Shown: in pieces, positions 12,920-19,373 of the stretch
How positions within the stretch are numbered: position 1 is the stretch's first letter
Layout: each line of letters starts with the position of its first letter
Assembly (NCBI GenBank): GCA_023705945.1
Contig: BPTM01000196.1
Coordinates: 1 to 19,751 of the forward strand
Reading direction: 5' to 3'
Length of the DNA stretch: 19,751 nt
Source of the DNA: Candidatus Heimdallarchaeota archaeon
GTDB lineage: Archaea; Asgardarchaeota; Heimdallarchaeia; Heimdallarchaeales; Heimdallarchaeaceae
Notes under the pieces: model-generated
What the model saw: the letters and a program-made list of their open reading frames with translations, nothing else
What the model was told of the DNA's origin: nothing
Databases searched by the model: none
Position numbers and translations under genes: made by a program

Positions 12920-13270
12920 CTAATCATTAATTCGTATGGACAATATACCACGTTTATCTTTTTGAACCATTACAGCTTCATTAGGAGCTACGATAGTAAA
13001 AACCTTGTTTTTTGAACCTCTTCCAAACAGTTTGGAAAGTTTGAAATCGTCTCCACCATCAAACGAGAAGAGCTTTAGACCTACAAATTCATTGAAGTCA
13101 ATTTTCCCCATTGTTTTACTGATGAGATTCATTTCTTCTGCAGGTGTCAAACCATTTTCTAGTACGAGGATGGTATTTCTCATAACTTTTGAAAGAATGT
13201 AACGAATCTTTTCATCATCAGTGAGATCATTAGTTTCCGCATATGGAACAAAATCTACTCTATACTTCAT
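12920..13270 (-). CDS. DUF2073 (COG3365-like) archaeal protein of unknown function
   Basis: The central segment of this 116-aa protein, ILVLENGLTPAEEMNLISKTMGKIDFNEFVGLKL, matches my recollection of the DUF2073 core (ilvlE.gLtPeEE..LI..TM..I). It starts 2 nt after the GTPase stop, and its AAGGTGAG SD lies inside the GTPase 3' end. Confidence 0.6.
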   Translation of the reverse strand: MKYRVDFVPYAETNDLTDDEKIRYILSKVMRNTILVLENGLTPAEEMNLISKTMGKIDFNEFVGLKLFSFDGGDDFKLSKLFGRGSKNKVFTIVAPNEAVMVQKDKRGILSIRIND

Positions 13271-13272
13271 GT

Positions 13273-13890
13273 CTATCGCCTCACCTTTTTAGCTAACTCA
13301 GCTATTTTATCATAAAGCTCATCGATTCCATCGCCTTGAATTGCTGAAACTGGTACAACAGGATACTGACTAAAAGCATCTCTGACAAGTCTTACATCAG
13401 CTTCCACCAAGTCAATTTTGTTTGGTACTAAAATGAATGGTTTTTTCTGATGCTCTAGATTTCCTATAATTGTGAAATTAACTTGATCAAAAGGTGATTT
13501 AGATGCATCAATTATAACAAGTGCTACATCAACTTGTTCAAGATACTTTATCGCTTCAATAATTCCTCTAGTTGCTTCTTTTGCTCTTTGCATCGCATCA
13601 CTTGCTGATAAACCATGTTTCATAAATTCCTTTGGATTAACAGAAGTAGCAATTCCTGGCATGTCTATTAAAGTTAAATCTAATTTAGTACCGTTAGCAG
13701 AGAAATTCACTTTTTCTAACTTTTGAATCTCTCTAGTTTCATGAGGAATCTCACTCACTATACCCACTTCTTGTTCTGCCCAATCCAGACCAATTTTATT
13801 AGCGAGAGTTGTTTTTCCCGCGTTTACTTCTCCGTAGAACCCTAAATTAACGGATTTTGGCTTTGACTTCAGCCACGATCTCCATGACAA
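13273..13890 (-). CDS. P-loop GTPase (partner of DUF2073, subfamily uncertain)
   Basis: G1 is GEVNAGKTT. A switch-I Thr lies in PHETREI. G3 is LIDMPGI, G4 is VPNKIDL and G5 is VSAIQG. The start is TTG (13888-13890) with AAGGTGA 5 nt upstream. Confidence 0.85.
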   Translation of the reverse strand: MSWRSWLKSKPKSVNLGFYGEVNAGKTTLANKIGLDWAEQEVGIVSEIPHETREIQKLEKVNFSANGTKLDLTLIDMPGIATSVNPKEFMKHGLSASDAMQRAKEATRGIIEAIKYLEQVDVALVIIDASKSPFDQVNFTIIGNLEHQKKPFILVPNKIDLVEADVRLVRDAFSQYPVVPVSAIQGDGIDELYDKIAELAKKVRR

Positions 13891-14023: not shown

Positions 14024-14569
14024 GTGAGACTAAATAAAGAATTAAAAAGATTAAGTTTTGACCTCTTAGCTCTTGTTCTAAGCGCAGGAATGACCTACCT
14101 GTCTTATATAGTTGTTACGAGCATAGAAACATTTGAACAATGGGATCGATATATTATACTGATTTTCACAAGTTTAATAGCAGGAATAATTGTTGGCTTT
14201 TTTGCCTTCAAAACAGAAGGTTTGATTATTGTCATTATACTGGGAACTACAATGTTGTCAATTCTAACGATTTTCGGTGTAAAAGGAATCGGTCTGTCAG
14301 AAACCTCAGAGAACTATTTACTCTCCTTATTCGTTTATATCTTAATCGGAATACTTTCTCTTTGTAATAACCTCTTTGGTTCATTTCTTGGTCGGATTGT
14401 AAGTCCCAAACTTTGGAAAGTAGCAAAAGGAGAAATAGAAATTTCTGATATAAAAGATGCGGTACAACCAACAACTCAAGTGAAGGAGCGAAATTTTTGC
14501 AAAAATTGTGGTTCAGAAGTACCTCATGGATATTCTACTTGTGAGATTTGTGGGACTTCAATAAACTAA
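14024..14569 (+). CDS. Multi-pass membrane protein with a C-terminal cytosolic zinc ribbon
   Basis: There are about four hydrophobic helices, then CKNCGSEVPHGYSTCEICG (CxxC-x10-CxxC) at the extreme C-terminus. The start is uncertain: GTG 14024 or ATG 14090. Confidence 0.55.
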   Translation: MRLNKELKRLSFDLLALVLSAGMTYLSYIVVTSIETFEQWDRYIILIFTSLIAGIIVGFFAFKTEGLIIVIILGTTMLSILTIFGVKGIGLSETSENYLLSLFVYILIGILSLCNNLFGSFLGRIVSPKLWKVAKGEIEISDIKDAVQPTTQVKERNFCKNCGSEVPHGYSTCEICGTSIN

Positions 14570-14597: not shown

Positions 14598-15743
14598 TCA
14601 AAGGCATTTCATTTTTGATGGGGTAAATGATAAACGGGTAATTCCATCCTTCCGTACAACCACATCATCTTCTAATCTTATTCCAAACTCTCCTTGGAAG
14701 TATAACCCAGGTTCAACGGTTATAATAGAGTTTTCTAGAAGTTGTTTACTTGGTCTGTCAGGTGTAGCTTTAGCTATTCCTATCCCAATATCATGTGTTT
14801 CTAGCCCCAGAGAATGTCCTGTAGAATGAATAAAGAGTTTCTCGTGATCATATCCAAATTCTTCAAACTTATCTCGAACTACGTTTTCGACATCTGAAGA
14901 TAAAACCCCTGCTTTTATCTTGTTAAAAGCAGCTTCTTTTGCTTTATCAACTGCCTCATATGCGCGTAATATATTTTCTGGTGGGTTTCTACCTATCCAG
15001 TAGGTGTGTGTTATATCTGAATTTGCAAGATTATATGATACACCATAATCTATGAGTAAAACGGTATTTTCTTCTATCTTCTTCTCTCCTGCTTTGTGAT
15101 GGGGAATAGCTGCATTTGGTCCTGAAGCAACAATAGCTTCGAAAGCGACACCACCTCGTTTATTACATTCATATTCTATAAGCGCATTAATTTCCTTTTC
15201 TCTCATACCTGGTTTAATACTTGGTTCAACTACTTCTTCCATAAGTTCTTCTGCTAATCTAGCTGCTTCCTGATGGTTTTCAATCTCTTTTTTTGTTTTA
15301 ACTGCTCTTATATCAAAAATAAGATCCTTTGCTGATACATATTCAAGTTCCTTATTTAAGGAAGTTAAAGCTTTAAATGAACCACTTGTTAGAATATCAT
15401 AATTCATCTTCTTGAAAACTTCATCTTCTTCAACAAAGTTCAAAGCTATCTTTGATCCTTTAGGAATTGAATTGAATTGTTTTTTTAATAATTCTTGTAA
15501 TTCAGATCCTTTATTGTATTCAGTAACATCATAGATATCTGAATTAATCATCATTGCTTCCATTCTGGAGGCAATCACTTTTGGTTTTCCATCTCTAGTA
15601 ATGAGAACAAACGTGGGTCCAGAAAACCATTTCTCAAGTAGATATTTGAGATGTATATCATAAGAATGATGACAGAAAACACCCCATCCATCAATTTCTT
15701 GTTCACGTAAAACGTTTTGAATTCTTTTGATTTTCTCTTTCAT
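14598..15743 (-). CDS. M24B-family Xaa-Pro aminopeptidase/dipeptidase
   Basis: A creatinase-like N-domain is followed by a pita-bread domain with all five metal ligands in context: LIDYG, NSDITHT, HSTGHSLGLETHD, VEPGLY and RLEDDV. The start ATG overlaps the cofC stop as TAATG (15741-15745). Confidence 0.9.
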   Translation of the reverse strand: MKEKIKRIQNVLREQEIDGWGVFCHHSYDIHLKYLLEKWFSGPTFVLITRDGKPKVIASRMEAMMINSDIYDVTEYNKGSELQELLKKQFNSIPKGSKIALNFVEEDEVFKKMNYDILTSGSFKALTSLNKELEYVSAKDLIFDIRAVKTKKEIENHQEAARLAEELMEEVVEPSIKPGMREKEINALIEYECNKRGGVAFEAIVASGPNAAIPHHKAGEKKIEENTVLLIDYGVSYNLANSDITHTYWIGRNPPENILRAYEAVDKAKEAAFNKIKAGVLSSDVENVVRDKFEEFGYDHEKLFIHSTGHSLGLETHDIGIGIAKATPDRPSKQLLENSIITVEPGLYFQGEFGIRLEDDVVVRKDGITRLSFTPSKMKCL

Positions 15744-16354
15744 TAAAACACTTCCTTAAAATAACTTTTCAACCATTCAGGCAGAGAGTTGTTTTGATTT
15801 AAGTTTGTTAAATCTTTAAATGTGTCTATATCTTGATAACAAAAATCATATTCCAAAACTTGATGGTTGATACTGGTCTTAGTGAGATAATTTGCCAATC
15901 TCTTTGCTGATTTTTTCCCATAAAAGAAAGGAAAAGAAACATTTCTGTTGAAACACAAAATACTTGTTCCATAATCTTCTGCAGGTGCTATTATGACTTT
16001 TTTTTCTTGTTCAACAGTCTCCAAAATGCTCTTAATATGGAAATTGTTTATCAAGGGTAAATCCGCCATAATAATCATAATAATATCTTCGTTCATTTTT
16101 GAAGCAAATTTTTGAAGAGAATCATTGAGATTCTTTCCTTGATCTTCAGCTATTTGGTATTTACCATCAAAAGAAATTTTATTCTTTGAAAGAATATACA
16201 AATTTACCTTCTTATCAAGTTTCATAATTTCAGATATTACCTGCTGTGTCATCCTATTAAGAATATATCTGACACTAATTTCATCCATATCTTCTCGTAG
16301 ACGGCTTTTGTCTAAGTCCGTCCCTCTAAACGGGATTACTATTCCAACAGTCAT
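15743..16354 (-). CDS. cofC: CofC/FbiD-like guanylyltransferase of F420 side-chain biosynthesis (MobA-like NTP-transferase fold)
   Basis: The N-terminus is VGIVIPFRGTDLDKSRL (CofC: IPvk....aKtRL) and MADLPLI is also present. The size is about 200 aa and the gene lies in a cofD operon. Sequence similarity is judged by eye and the protein is divergent. Confidence 0.65.
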   Translation of the reverse strand: MTVGIVIPFRGTDLDKSRLREDMDEISVRYILNRMTQQVISEIMKLDKKVNLYILSKNKISFDGKYQIAEDQGKNLNDSLQKFASKMNEDIIMIIMADLPLINNFHIKSILETVEQEKKVIIAPAEDYGTSILCFNRNVSFPFFYGKKSAKRLANYLTKTSINHQVLEYDFCYQDIDTFKDLTNLNQNNSLPEWLKSYFKEVF

Positions 16355-16357
16355 TGT

Positions 16358-17140
16358 CTACCCTTCTAATTGTTGTATTAATTGAGCAATAAAATTTGGA
16401 TATTTGATGAGTGGTCTTGCTACAGATACAGCAATAGCTCCTACTTTTAGCATCTTTTTAACATCTTCTATACATCTTACAGAATTATTGCCAATAACTG
16501 GAATATCGGTAGAGCGACAAAAGAATTCTAATAATTGAATATTTGCAACATTTTTTCCTTTCAACATAGAATCAATATGAATATAGTTAACTTGTTGTTT
16601 CTCTAAACTTTTAATCAAGGCATCCTTATCTCCAACAGAACACCCTCGAATTTTTATGCCTAATTTTGTTTTTTGTAAAGAATTTGAGATACCTGTTAGT
16701 AACTGATTTAATTTCTTTAGGTCCTTAAGCAGACTTTCCCCTCCTCCTAGTGATAGGACTTCTTTTTGTCTACAATGAACATTTAATTCTAGAAAATCTA
16801 TTTTTCCATCTAAAGATTTTAACCATTTTTCAGTAATTTGATCAATGGTTACAATTCGTAGATTAACAGCTGTTTTTTGATTCTTCTTCCTCTTGTTTAG
16901 TAAAAGATTTTGATTAAGCCACTCGGACAACTCATTCGCATTTACCGACGGAATGAATTCCATTCTCCCCCTCTCTTCCATCTTCAAAGATGCATTACAA
17001 TTTAATTTGTCAGCTGGAAATCCACCCAAGGTGACCATACCTGCTCCTAAATCAAGCATCTTTTGACAAAAATCTCTGTTTGCAACACCAGCTATAGCAG
17101 ATTGAGCAATAAGTGGTTTAATTTTAAACATATTTGTCAT
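16358..17140 (-). CDS. Dus/NifR3-related FMN-binding TIM-barrel oxidoreductase (short archaeal form), function unassigned
   Basis: The Dus-like motif order is kept. IAQSAIAGVANRDFCQKM corresponds to laPMaGvTd..FR. IDFLELNVHCRQKEVLSLGGGESLL corresponds to iDiNmGCP..kv...g.GsaLl. LGIKIRG corresponds to vKiR.G. IPVIGNNSVRCIEDVKKML...AVSVARPLIKYPNF corresponds to iPVi.NGdI....a......gvMiGRgal.nP. A GGAGAG SD lies 7 nt upstream of ATG 17140. The gene overlaps the cofD 3' end by 17 nt. Confidence 0.65.
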   Translation of the reverse strand: MTNMFKIKPLIAQSAIAGVANRDFCQKMLDLGAGMVTLGGFPADKLNCNASLKMEERGRMEFIPSVNANELSEWLNQNLLLNKRKKNQKTAVNLRIVTIDQITEKWLKSLDGKIDFLELNVHCRQKEVLSLGGGESLLKDLKKLNQLLTGISNSLQKTKLGIKIRGCSVGDKDALIKSLEKQQVNYIHIDSMLKGKNVANIQLLEFFCRSTDIPVIGNNSVRCIEDVKKMLKVGAIAVSVARPLIKYPNFIAQLIQQLEG

Positions 17141-18071
17141 AAAGTTCTCTCCGATTCAATATAGAACAAGCTAACCTAGAAGCATCTTGAGTGTCTTTGA
17201 ACAAAATTTCTTCTGAAAAAACTTCTAATCCAGTTTTATTTTGTATCTGGTTACTCATATCTGAATCTGTTTTGTCAATTATTAAACATGAACAATAATC
17301 TTTATAGATTTTTGCAATTCCCATTGGTGTAGATTCCAATCCTTCGGCTTTCATGAGCATTTCAGTGGGACCACTAACGGGTTTATTACCAATAAGGGGA
17401 CTTATGGCAATGGTCTTATCCTTATGTTTTCTCAATAATTCTGCAATCTCTCTAACTCGGATTATTGGACCTATACTTGTCACTGGATTACTTGGACCAA
17501 TTATAATTAACTCAGATTTTTCAATTGTACTTCTAACTGCTTCTGGGATTTCAGCACTTTCTAGATTTTTTATGTAAACTTGTTTAATGTTTACTTTTGC
17601 TTTGTATTTAACCCAGAATTCTTGAAAATGAATGTCACCTTTCTTTTCTGTGATAATACGACTCTCTATATGATTGTTTGTGCAAGGAATAATTGTTGAT
17701 TCAATATTTAGAAGGTTTGAAAGAGCTTTTACAATATCCTCTTGAGAGCGCCCTTTTTGAATCATCAGAGTTCTAAAAAGATTAACAGCTAGGTCTTGAT
17801 CACCCAAATTGAACCATGTTGGAAAGCCAAGCAAGTGCAACATCTTCAAAGTGTTGAAAGTGTCGTTTTTTATCCCCCAAAATTTATTTTCATCTAACAA
17901 ACCACTGAACAAGTAGAGTATCGTATCCACATCAGGTGAGATATAAATTCCCGAGAGCCATATATCATCTGCAGTATTAACTATCACAGATAGACTTTCA
18001 TCACTTAAAATAGTTCTAAAACCTTGAATTAACTTTGGGGTTCCTGTTCCTCCTGAAAGGAATGTTATCAT
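17124..18071 (-). CDS. cofD: 2-phospho-L-lactate (LPPG):FO transferase
   Basis: There is a near-canonical CofD N-terminus, MITFLSGGTGTPKLIQGF...SVIVNTADD...YISPDVDTILY. Also present are IIIGPSNPVTSIGPI and ISPLIGNKPVSGPTEMLM. This matches methanogen CofD as I remember it along its full length. Confidence 0.9.
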   Translation of the reverse strand: MITFLSGGTGTPKLIQGFRTILSDESLSVIVNTADDIWLSGIYISPDVDTILYLFSGLLDENKFWGIKNDTFNTLKMLHLLGFPTWFNLGDQDLAVNLFRTLMIQKGRSQEDIVKALSNLLNIESTIIPCTNNHIESRIITEKKGDIHFQEFWVKYKAKVNIKQVYIKNLESAEIPEAVRSTIEKSELIIIGPSNPVTSIGPIIRVREIAELLRKHKDKTIAISPLIGNKPVSGPTEMLMKAEGLESTPMGIAKIYKDYCSCLIIDKTDSDMSNQIQNKTGLEVFSEEILFKDTQDASRLACSILNRRELYDKYV

Positions 18072-18085
18072 AATAAACCCCTAAA

Positions 18086-18946
18086 TTATTTCTTTTTAGC
18101 TGTGGATTTCTTTGCCGCTGGTTTTGCTTTAGTTTTTTTATTTACTTTTTTAGTTGCTTTCTTCTTTTCAGTTGTCTTCTTTTCAGCTGGCTTTGCTTTA
18201 GTCTTTGTTTCAGTTTTAACTGTTGTCTTCTTTTCAGCTGGCTTTGCTTTAGTCTTTGTTTCAGTTTTTGTTTCAGTTTTAGAAGTTGTTTTTTCAGTTA
18301 CTTTTTTAGTTGCTTTCTTCTTCACTGCAGTTTTCTTTTTCTTTGAATCTACTTCTGTAAGACGAAACCGTGAAGTTGATTTTATGACAACTCTATAGTA
18401 AGCTCCTTGTTCTCCTAGTATAGGATTTCTAACAATTCTAAGAACATCACCTGGTTTTGCTTGAATCGCTTTTACGGCAGGATCTGTCTCTAGAATTTTT
18501 GGAATTTGATGTTTTGAGATTTGATATTTTATTAAAAATGATCGGATTTCCTTACTGGTTAATTTAATATGATGAGGGACTACTTCATGATCAAAAATAT
18601 TGAACAATGGGTTTGAACTACTGATAATCTCTATTCCGAGTTTTACAGATTCTTTCTTTGCATAATGAGTCAACGGTGCTTCTGCAATTAGTAATGCTTC
18701 ATCTAATTCCTCTTCAGCCTGAAGTTTACCAAGAATTCTAATTGTTTTTACTCCGACTTGAGGATTTTTTGGAAATCTTGCTAATGCTGTTTTTTTCGTA
18801 TCATCTTCTCCAATCTTTTCCGCATATACGTCCATAAATTCGTCGTCTTCTTTTATCTTAGTTATTTCAAATCCTCTAAATTCGAGTATTTCTTTAACTC
18901 CACTTGCGATTCTTTGCTCTTTTGCTAGTTGTTCCTTAGTTGCCAA
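18086..18946 (-). CDS. rpoH: RNA polymerase subunit H/Rpb5, long form: Rpb5_N-like domain, RpoH/Rpb5_C domain and a lysine-rich repeat tail
   Basis: The C-domain reads FDHEVVPHHIKLTSKEIRSFLIKYQISKHQIPKILETDPAVKAIQAKPGDVLRIVR...GAYYRVV. The N-terminal ~110 aa carries VKEILEFRGFEIT and FPKNPQVGVKTIRI. The last ~84 aa are K/T/A/P/E only. The start is TTG (18944-18946) with a GAGGT SD. Confidence 0.85.
   Translation of the reverse strand: MATKEQLAKEQRIASGVKEILEFRGFEITKIKEDDEFMDVYAEKIGEDDTKKTALARFPKNPQVGVKTIRILGKLQAEEELDEALLIAEAPLTHYAKKESVKLGIEIISSSNPLFNIFDHEVVPHHIKLTSKEIRSFLIKYQISKHQIPKILETDPAVKAIQAKPGDVLRIVRNPILGEQGAYYRVVIKSTSRFRLTEVDSKKKKTAVKKKATKKVTEKTTSKTETKTETKTKAKPAEKKTTVKTETKTKAKPAEKKTTEKKKATKKVNKKTKAKPAAKKSTAKKK
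18143..18322. repeat. Nested direct repeats inside the rpoH tail-coding region
   Basis: A perfect 47-nt direct repeat occurs at 18171-18217 and 18222-18268, with a 51-nt period equal to a 17-aa unit (KTETKTKAKPAEKKTT[V/E]). It is flanked by a perfect 24-nt repeat, TACTTTTTTAGTTGCTTTCTTCTT, at 18143-18166 and 18299-18322. An 11-mer, GTTTCAGTTTT, recurs at 18207, 18258 and 18270. Confidence 0.9.
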
Positions 18947-19016: not shown

Positions 19017-19373
19017 TTAGTTTTGTTCCTCTTTTGTAGTGAATTTGATGAAATAGGAACCATCCTTATCCCTACTTATAATAGTTTTTTCTTTCCCTGA
19101 TTCTGTTAGAAGTTTCTCTATATCAACCTCAAAAACCCCTTCACTAGTTAGCCGAATTGATTCCAATCCTTCTTGAATATCTGTATTTTCTACTTCTCTT
19201 TCAACTATTATATCTAATTCCTTCTCATCTTGAAATTTTATACTTCCTTCTTTGAAAGTTTTGAACTTGAAAGATCCACAGTTTGGACACCCATTGAGAA
19301 GTATATCGTTTGAAAGGGTAATATCTTTCTCGCAAATTGCACAAATAGTCTTTCTCTTTGATGATTCTGACAT
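19017..19373 (-). CDS. Zn-ribbon protein, DUF2072/COG3364-like
   Basis: The N-terminal ribbon is CAICEKDITLSNDILLNGCPNCGSFKF. The C-terminal segment is LESIRLTSEGVFEVDIEKLL...GSYFIKF. Both fit my recollection of the archaeal DUF2072 family, which is usually found beside the GTPase/DUF2073 pair. Confidence 0.5.
   Translation of the reverse strand: MSESSKRKTICAICEKDITLSNDILLNGCPNCGSFKFKTFKEGSIKFQDEKELDIIVEREVENTDIQEGLESIRLTSEGVFEVDIEKLLTESGKEKTIISRDKDGSYFIKFTTKEEQN

Follow-up and report, generated by a model that had tools for sequence, protein, structure and literature searches.

In mycobacteria, the tail of the deazaflavin cofactor F420 is built from phosphoenolpyruvate (PEP) to give dehydro-F420-0, which FbiB's C-terminal domain reduces; the corresponding archaeal enzyme was drawn as 'CofX' with no gene assigned (Bashiri et al. 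2019). Mycobacterial fbiA lies beside fbiB and is co-transcribed with it, with FbiB carrying the reductase. The same study searched 1060 archaeal cofE neighbourhoods for the nitroreductase family PF00881 only and found zero, obtained no lactate kinase candidate from F420 operons, and described an FbiB-like fusion of CofE with a nitroreductase (NTR) domain in Lokiarchaeia (Bashiri et al. 2019). A 2021 review called the source of 2-phospho-L-lactate (2-PL) in methanogens a 'long-standing question' and reported complete F420 gene sets in Heimdallarchaeota, and Pfeiffer and Dyall-Smith have summarised the impasse. Here we analyse a gene for a protein related to the dihydrouridine synthases (Dus) that lies between cofD and cofC on a 19,751-nucleotide contig (BPTM01000196.1 of assembly GCA_023705945.1; the whole stretch is called the window below) from a Candidatus Heimdallarchaeota archaeon. 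The Dus-like protein is probably a flavin mononucleotide (FMN)-dependent C=C reductase of the superfamily comprising Dus, dihydroorotate dehydrogenase (DHOD) and dihydropyrimidine dehydrogenase (DPD), recruited to F420 tail synthesis and not a tRNA enzyme.

The closest described proteins carry an RNA-modification name. An 'archaeal Dus' subfamily with motif deviations was listed by Kasprzak et al. 2012 (PMC3674756), MJ0144 (Q57608) of M. jannaschii still serves as the archaeal Dus type sequence, and a 2026 description, which cites Noon et al. 2003 on M. burtonii tRNA modification, calls the subfamily 'not well-characterized to date' (PMC13136901). A sequence-only reading of the window had spoken of an archaea-only NifR3-related family without assigned function; no member has indeed been characterised, but the family had already been named 'archaeal Dus' in the Dus literature. 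Its account of F420 biochemistry agrees with published work, in which the 2-PL-forming enzyme is not known and the archaeal dehydro-F420-0 reductase 'CofX' is postulated only. Our literature search, which had most subscription journals outside its coverage, covered CofX, PEP or dehydro-F420 reductases, MJ0144, TIGR00736 and methanogenesis marker 9 and found no assignment of this function, nor any paper after Bashiri et al. 2019 that names CofX.

The three genes of the locus run head to tail on the minus strand, with all three open reading frames (ORFs) at the positions and in the order that the earlier reading had given. In the following lines, FO is 7,8-didemethyl-8-hydroxy-5-deazariboflavin, and LPPG and EPPG are the lactyl and enolpyruvyl diphosphoguanosine intermediates, respectively.

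17124 to 18071, minus strand: cofD, 2-phospho-L-lactate (LPPG/EPPG):FO transferase, 315 amino acids (TIGR01819 F420_cofD, Pfam CofD)
16358 to 17140, minus strand: Dus/DHOD-like FMN TIM-barrel gene, 260 amino acids, candidate F420 side-chain enolpyruvyl reductase (Pfam Dus, TIGR00736, AlphaFold2 model, synteny)
15743 to 16354, minus strand: cofC, guanylyltransferase for a three-carbon acid (PEP/2-PL), 203 amino acids (Pfam CofC; aligns to M. mazei CofC, 2i5e)
17124 to 17140, minus strand: 17-nucleotide overlap of the cofD stop with the start of the Dus-like gene (read from the sequence)
16355 to 16357, minus strand: 3-nucleotide spacer ACA in TAG-ACA-ATG, from the Dus-like gene's stop to the ATG of cofC (read from the sequence)

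CofD of the window scores 330 bits against the TIGR01819 equivalog model (cutoff 257) and matches Pfam CofD with E = 1e-50, while CofC scores 67 bits against Pfam CofC (cutoff 22) and 95 bits against TIGR03552, slightly below its cutoff of 105. The window has a G+C content of 33.6% and its nearest relatives are Heimdallarchaeia metagenome-assembled genomes. Beyond cofC and cofD, no further F420 genes were found within its 19.7 kb.

The evidence that carries our assignment comes from comparison across genomes. A motif scan with one genome per GTDB species found a relative of the Dus-like gene in at least 598 genomes, and the best 80 loci were analysed. By tblastn with the window CofD, 71 of the 80 have cofD upstream on the same strand; eight of the nine exceptions are contig ends with less than 1.3 kb of upstream sequence, and once the loci are restricted to those having 2.2 kb or more of upstream flank, 60 of 61 show the linkage. 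Unbiased clustering of neighbouring ORFs likewise ranked CofD first. The linked lineages include Asgard classes, Thermoproteota, Methanobacteriales and haloarchaeal-type contigs, at least eight deep lineages altogether, and in all 35 loci outside the Methanobacteriales the cofD stop falls between -17 and +30 nucleotides from the first aligned residue of the Dus-like gene. The CofDs next to it pass the strict TIGR01819 equivalog cutoff, for instance with 314 bits in haloarchaeal-type loci and 285 bits in locus L090.

The remaining partners change with lineage. Writing X for the Dus-like gene, the order is cofE-cofD-X-cofC in Thermoproteota and in Baldr-, Jord- and Freyarchaeia, cofD-X-cofC-cofG-cofH in Hodarchaeales, and purO-cofE-cofD-gch3-X-atwA in Methanobacteriales, where gch3 encodes GTP cyclohydrolase IIa/III. 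The CofE, CofC, CofG, CofH and GTP cyclohydrolase neighbours were confirmed by curated hidden Markov models (HMMs), and independent gene calls with precomputed Pfam matches were concordant. Many lineages keep cofD beside the Dus-like gene with cofC elsewhere, and no locus has cofC beside it without cofD; the cofD linkage is the invariant core of the neighbourhood. Twelve further family clusters, sampled independently via their encoding contigs, had cofD directly upstream in eight cases, among them two high-GC haloarchaeal-type clusters (cofD, X, a CitG-like gene and a DUF447 gene) and several low-GC lineages. Synteny with cofC and cofD in other archaea, which the earlier reading had proposed in advance as a test, thus gave a strongly positive result, with cofD linkage in both samples and cofC, cofE, cofG/cofH or GTP cyclohydrolase III added by lineage. 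Cultivated Halobacteria also commonly carry the family, under the annotations tRNA-dihydrouridine synthase or dihydropyrimidine dehydrogenase, and all named family matches come from lineages reported to encode F420 synthesis.

This cross-genome synteny is the decisive evidence, and not the local junctions of the window. The overlap and the spacer that had been reported there were both confirmed by direct reading: the cofD stop TAA (17126-17124) lies inside the Dus-like ORF, whose ATG is at 17140. An alternative in-frame ATG at codon 4 would leave an 8-nucleotide overlap, and we prefer the first ATG because close homologues have no Met at codon 4. The accompanying claim that each downstream gene has its own Shine-Dalgarno (SD) sequence held for the Dus-like gene, with an SD-like GGAG about 9 nucleotides 5' of its start, but for cofC only a weaker purine run, GAAGGG, was seen; this run and the TAGGGG 5' of cofD are poorer SD matches than GGAG. 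Dense packing is a property of the whole genome and is not specific to the trio. The stop of cofC and the start of an unrelated M24 peptidase gene overlap in TAATG (15743), and an rpoH-like gene ends 14 nucleotides before cofD, so that with flanking genes equally tight the trio junctions are weak evidence for a functional link. We therefore discarded local translational coupling as evidence for function, given that unrelated flanking genes are packed alike.

The family assignment of the Dus-like protein rests on profile scores and on fold. It scores 32.8 bits against Pfam Dus (cutoff 20.4), and its top NCBIfam match is TIGR00736, 'MJ0144 family RNA dihydrouridine synthase-like protein', at 175.8 bits over its full length (model positions 1-226 of 231), which is under the curated cutoff of 218.7, as are members of other branches (Methanoperedens 195 bits, Methanopyri 165 bits). 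Scores against the DusA, DusB and DusC equivalogs are about 29 bits versus cutoffs near 293. The AlphaFold model, built with 19 homologues (pLDDT 94.3, pTM 0.92), is a single (beta/alpha)8 barrel followed by one terminal helix, with the second domain absent. The closest solved structures in Foldseek are the catalytic domains of the Dus enzymes TM0096, DusB, DusC and hDus2, together with DHOD and DPD, at 14-19% identity and a TM-score of about 0.7, and no solved structure for any MJ0144/TIGR00736 member was among the Foldseek matches. By profile search the family is compact, with 61 clusters at 50% identity matching full-length at E of 1e-30 or better, and below it the scores drop sharply to canonical Dus, which give partial profile matches only. 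Family members are 236-277 amino acids long versus 300-330 for canonical Dus.

The active site combines Dus residues with substitutions typical of the family, as the following motifs show.

16760 to 16789, minus strand: active-site loop E118-L-N-V-H-C-R-Q-K-E127, in which NxGCP of Dus is replaced by NxHCR (profile alignment to TM0096, DusB and hDus2)
16646 to 16654, minus strand: K163-I-R165, equivalent to KxR of Dus, with K163 invariant (profile alignment)
16571 to 16579, minus strand: H188-I-D190, in which the Arg of the Dus HxR motif is replaced by an invariant Asp (profile alignment)
16955 to 16972, minus strand: R57-G-R-M-E-F62, consensus RGRxEF, specific to the family and not found in Dus (alignments)

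The catalytic Cys of Dus corresponds to C123 in the alignment, which also matches the FMN-phosphate Arg of Dus. Among 28 members covering every lineage sampled, G18, G39, R95, E118, H122, C123, G134, K163, H188 and D190 are invariant, and conservation is 90% or higher at R59, E61, F62, N93, R124, Q125, R165, N218, N219 and R242; in the closer homologue alignment R57, R59 and E61 are conserved. The window protein thus has the NxHC(K/R) and HxD signature and the single barrel of about 240-270 amino acids that mark the MJ0144 family. The idea of the earlier reading that Dus-type flavin chemistry could reduce the C=C bond fits these alignments, in which the family as a whole retains the catalytic residues of Dus, Cys, Lys and His. 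As a separate observation, a divergent member (P0186; L087, 5548-6783) keeps all the invariant residues and lies after four glycosyltransferase genes, one methyltransferase gene and one cytidylyltransferase-like gene in place of cof genes. This member may be a paralogue that serves another acceptor pathway.

A second set of partners is found in particular lineages. In at least five methanogen clusters (L077, 5947-7062; P0147, P0172, P0181 and P0176) the barrel carries a fused 'methanogenesis marker 9' domain (TIGR03277), which has eight Cys and two CCxxxKPC motifs, and in L019 (8456-8932) and 32 other Methanobacteriales loci marker 9 is encoded by a gene of its own, two genes downstream of the Dus-like gene and after atwA (component A2 of methyl-coenzyme M reductase). 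A motif scan found marker 9 in methanogen loci only; none of the Asgard loci has it, nor does the window. No fusion of the Dus-like protein to CofC, CofD or CofE was found, and the marker-9 domain is its sole recurrent fusion partner; this domain may be an electron-input module. A structural model of the marker-9 fusion was discarded as evidence for electron transfer, its marker-9 part having a pLDDT of about 40-70 from a 4-sequence alignment. In four of the 12 sampled clusters (L085, 2596-4205; L088, 6732-8184; L094, 2942-3880; L096, 1469-2889) a CitG-like gene of the triphosphoribosyl-dephospho-CoA synthase family directly follows the Dus-like gene; a DUF447 gene comes next in three of these four, the next ORF in L094 being cut by the contig end, and cofD is upstream in three of the four. 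DUF447 has relatives with solved structures (2nr4, 2iml and 2ptf), which we take to be FMN-binding split barrels. We found no functional proposal in the literature for DUF447 or CitG together with methanopterin.

Given this linkage and active site, we consider it likely, with some reservation, that at some point in the F420 tail pathway the enolpyruvyl group derived from PEP is reduced by the Dus-like protein, a reduction of EPPG included. With only slightly more caution, we also think it reasonably probable that the whole MJ0144/TIGR00736 family is the redox enzyme of archaeal F420 tail synthesis, either CofX or a replacement for the lactate kinase 'CofB', and does not modify RNA. Dehydro-F420-0 as the specific substrate, giving F420-0, is a more tentative assignment that falls short of probable. 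We favour it because the invariant partner, cofD, encodes the enzyme that would make this substrate, with cofC sometimes elsewhere and never the reverse, and because the gene order mirrors mycobacterial fbiA-fbiB. All 42 CofEs encoded next to the Dus-like gene are single-domain proteins of 336 amino acids or fewer without an FbiB-type NTR domain.

Building on the fold, the conserved catalytic residues and the genomic linkage, which are established, we infer a substrate, a direction and an electron donor for the following mechanism. CofC and GTP would activate PEP to EPPG, CofD would move the enolpyruvyl-phosphate onto FO to give dehydro-F420-0, the Dus-like enzyme would reduce the enolpyruvyl C=C bond to the L-lactyl group of F420-0, and CofE would then glutamylate this product. 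By analogy with Dus, class 1A DHOD (DHOD-1A) and MurB, N5 of reduced FMN would donate hydride to the terminal CH2, the carbon beta to the carboxylate, and C2 would be protonated by the invariant Cys123. Lys163, His188, His122, R59, R95, R124 and R165 would hold the carboxylate and phosphate and stabilise an aci-carboxylate intermediate. In Asgard archaea NAD(P)H would probably re-reduce the FMN; elsewhere, electrons might enter through the fused or co-located marker-9 domain in methanogens, with CitG-like and DUF447 genes added in haloarchaeal-type operons.

The acid that enters the pathway can be narrowed down from CofC itself. A profile of eight syntenic CofCs was aligned to FbiD of M. tuberculosis (Mtb-FbiD), to MycB3-CofC, which is specific for 3-phosphoglycerate (3-PG), and to M. 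mazei CofC, where a single-sequence PDB search had reached 2i5e only.

15908 to 15919, minus strand: CofC G146-K-K-S149 (eight syntenic CofCs, profile-aligned to 6bwg, 7p97 and 2i5e)

The position of Mtb-FbiD G163 is Ser in the 3-PG-activating CofC (Mrhiz-S162), and FbiD S166 binds the carboxylate (PMC8764529). In the window CofC, G146 occupies the G163 position and S149 that of S166, with T130 and S149 also conserved. Gly stands at the diagnostic position in eight of eight syntenic CofCs, so these enzymes would activate PEP or 2-PL and not 3-PG.

Several observations weigh against a dehydro-F420-0 reductase. Archaeal CofC and CofD prefer 2-PL and LPPG in vitro, with PEP and EPPG also accepted, and these assays cannot tell the substrate used in vivo (Hasan et al. 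2022, PMC8764529). The 80 loci behind our cofD counts are those closest to the query and not a random sample of the family. Graupner and White 2001 reportedly found 2-PL to occur naturally in methanogens and a GTP-dependent lactate kinase activity in extracts; if this is correct, a reductase would be unnecessary. Four of the 12 sampled clusters have no cof neighbour (two marker-9 fusions, one glycosyltransferase cluster and one other), and cofD linkage is also missing in Methanoperedens and absent in some methanogen lineages. The CitG-like gene occurs in a methanopterin-linked island of a methanotroph as well; to our knowledge such methanopterin bacteria lack F420, and we know of no F420 role for the CitG-like and DUF447 partners. 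Finally, the Dus-like protein has no recognisable deazaflavin-binding module, and its FMN binding is predicted by homology.

Of the alternatives, the one that survives best keeps the enzyme class and moves it one step earlier: free PEP would be reduced to 2-PL for CofC, replacing the never-found lactate kinase CofB. We regard this as unlikely, although it deserves to be kept in view, and a variant in which CofC-bound EPPG is reduced to LPPG is less likely. The whole synteny evidence is also compatible with it, and it would supply the missing source of the 2-PL that archaeal CofC and CofD prefer. A small one-domain protein with many basic family-specific residues (R59, R95, H122, R124 and R165) would suit a small trianionic substrate, and the divergent member next to a cytidylyltransferase-like gene in a glycosyltransferase cluster would fit a generic nucleotide-activated phospho-acid building block. 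Reduction ahead of coupling would also bypass dehydro-F420, which is less stable than the saturated forms (PMC8764529). What speaks for a later step is that the conserved linkage is with cofD rather than cofC; moreover, E118 and D190, which are invariant, and E61 lie near the motifs in the sequence and are unexpected for a purely anionic ligand, and a literature search for 'PEP reductase' and 'phosphoenolpyruvate reductase' found no flavoenzyme that reduces free PEP. Gene order thus favours dehydro-F420-0, whereas the published preferences of CofC and CofD favour 2-PL.

Distinctly less probable, in our view, is a reductase of another cofactor step co-regulated with F420, whether in the pyrimidine or ribityl branch of riboflavin and FO synthesis or in a pterin pathway with the CitG-like and DUF447 proteins, or a role in handling FO or F420 without side-chain reduction. 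GTP cyclohydrolase III stands between cofD and the Dus-like gene in Methanobacteriales, Dus, DHOD and DPD act on uracil-type rings, and the FO precursor is a uracil derivative. The recurrent CitG-like/DUF447 module keeps this explanation, with an other or broader cofactor pathway, alive; the methanotroph island and the marker-9 fusions in methanogens also agree with it. Against this, cofD is common to all the lineages and the cofC and cofE neighbours are likewise specific to the tail, while we know of no unassigned C=C reduction in the FO and pyrimidine branches. The riboflavin branch is universal in archaea, yet the named family matches are confined to F420-encoding lineages, and Halobacteria carry the gene but make no methanopterin (Pfeiffer and Dyall-Smith).

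That the protein is a genuine RNA dihydrouridine synthase with a conserved but functionally meaningless place beside cofD is very improbable: the above-threshold Pfam Dus match, the conserved Cys, Lys and His, the literature class 'archaeal Dus' and the dihydrouridine that M. burtonii reportedly contains agree with it, whereas the helical tRNA-binding domain is missing, the Arg of HxR is lost, a sharp score gap separates the family from canonical Dus, some members are fused to a methanogen-specific Cys-rich domain, and embedding in F420 operons with varying partners in at least eight deep lineages would be unexpected for unrelated genes. The family also occurs in taxa whose tRNAs are without dihydrouridine, which speaks against a tRNA role: H. 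volcanii tRNAs lack it and it is rare or absent in hyperthermophilic archaea, and the family is present in Halobacteria generally (H. volcanii itself was not checked), in Methanopyri and in M. jannaschii, the source of the type member MJ0144.

The Dus-like gene is thus the best available candidate for the unassigned F420 reduction step, a specific protein of 260 amino acids whose active-site signature is clear. F420 plays a central part in methanogenesis, in the anaerobic oxidation of alkanes, in the biosynthesis of antibiotics and in the activation of prodrugs and is being engineered into E. coli and yeast, and the archaeal pathway has had a gap for more than 20 years at the 2-phospholactate-making enzyme and since 2019 also at the dehydro-F420-0 reductase 'CofX'. 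If our proposal is true, the archaeal pathway would be completed, a compact reductase would become available for heterologous F420 production, and the annotations 'tRNA-dihydrouridine synthase' and 'dihydropyrimidine dehydrogenase' would be corrected in hundreds of archaeal genomes. It would also remove the sole candidate Dus from archaea, and archaeal RNA dihydrouridine would have a different origin.

Other genes in the window are recorded here in their own right. The rpoH-like gene 5' of cofD (18086-18946, minus strand) encodes 286 amino acids versus the usual 80 or so. In the PDB it is matched best by eukaryotic Rpb5/RPABC1 (71.8 bits, residues 47-185), in an alignment that reaches about 65 amino acids N-terminal of the RpoH-like domain, while archaeal RpoH matches are limited to residues 114-189. 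Weak PD-(D/E)XK-type Pfam matches cover residues 15-109, and the C-terminal tail is Lys/Thr-rich and repetitive, with KTETKTKAKPAEKKTT occurring twice. Conserved across 12 related loci, this long form may represent an Rpb5-like subunit of full length in Heimdallarchaeia. The gene for the M24 Xaa-Pro peptidase-like protein (14598-15743, minus strand), which overlaps the cofC stop by 1 nucleotide, is a conserved downstream neighbour in 14-15 loci, from Heimdallarchaeia and one Borrarchaeum locus (L016), and is probably co-transcribed with the cof genes but not functionally linked to them; conservation of the rpoH-like and M24 neighbours is essentially confined to Heimdallarchaeia (12-15 loci). 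Genes for the origin-associated proteins OapB, an adjacent OapA-like GTPase and OapC flank the cof cluster (12920-13890 and 19017-19373, both minus strand), as they do in the related Heimdall contig L083, and a replication origin may lie nearby. The product of an ORF at 14024-14569 (plus strand) is predicted to span the membrane several times; it has a zinc-ribbon tail (CxxC...CxxC) at its C-terminus and no family match.

Set beside the known systems, the Dus-like protein shares with the Dus enzymes (DusA/B/C, Dus1-4; PF01207, COG0042) an FMN-type (beta/alpha)8 barrel in which the catalytic Cys, KxR, His and FMN-phosphate Arg are aligned. It differs from them in its low identity, in having no C-terminal helical tRNA-binding domain, in its NxHCR and HxD motifs in place of NxGCP and HxR, and in the extra RGRxEF motif; the HxR Arg is essential in TthDus. 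Its gene context is F420 biosynthesis and not translation. MJ0144/TIGR00736 ('nifR3_rel_arch') is the best HMM match and has identical NxHC(K/R) and HxD deviations, whereas the window protein is under the curated cutoff and the Asgard and haloarchaeal branches are divergent sub-branches.

For the chemistry, the nearest precedents are DHOD-1A, in its fumarate half-reaction, and MurB, in which a C=C bond conjugated to a carboxylate receives hydride from reduced flavin at its beta-carbon and a proton from a protein acid at its alpha-carbon. This acid is a Cys in DHOD-1A, and MurB turns the enolpyruvyl group of enolpyruvyl-UDP-N-acetylglucosamine into a lactyl group. DHOD is a relative in fold only, the Dus-like protein being far below the DHOD family cutoffs, MurB has another fold and uses flavin adenine dinucleotide, and neither acts on a phosphate-linked enolpyruvate.

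FbiB's C-terminal domain has the reaction and the cofactor that we propose for the Dus-like protein, and its gene adjoins a CofD homologue, as the Dus-like gene does. Genetic coupling extends to the CofD and CofE steps, with cofE also nearby in Jord-, Frey- and Baldrarchaeia, Thermoproteota and Methanobacteriales. In FbiB, however, the reductase has the nitroreductase PF00881 fold and is fused to CofE, whereas the Dus-like protein is a free-standing TIM barrel. Because the folds are unrelated, a function shared with FbiB would be a case of non-orthologous displacement, making the Dus-like protein a functional analogue and not a member of the same family. We therefore propose a known but uncharacterised family as a non-homologous replacement of a known activity.

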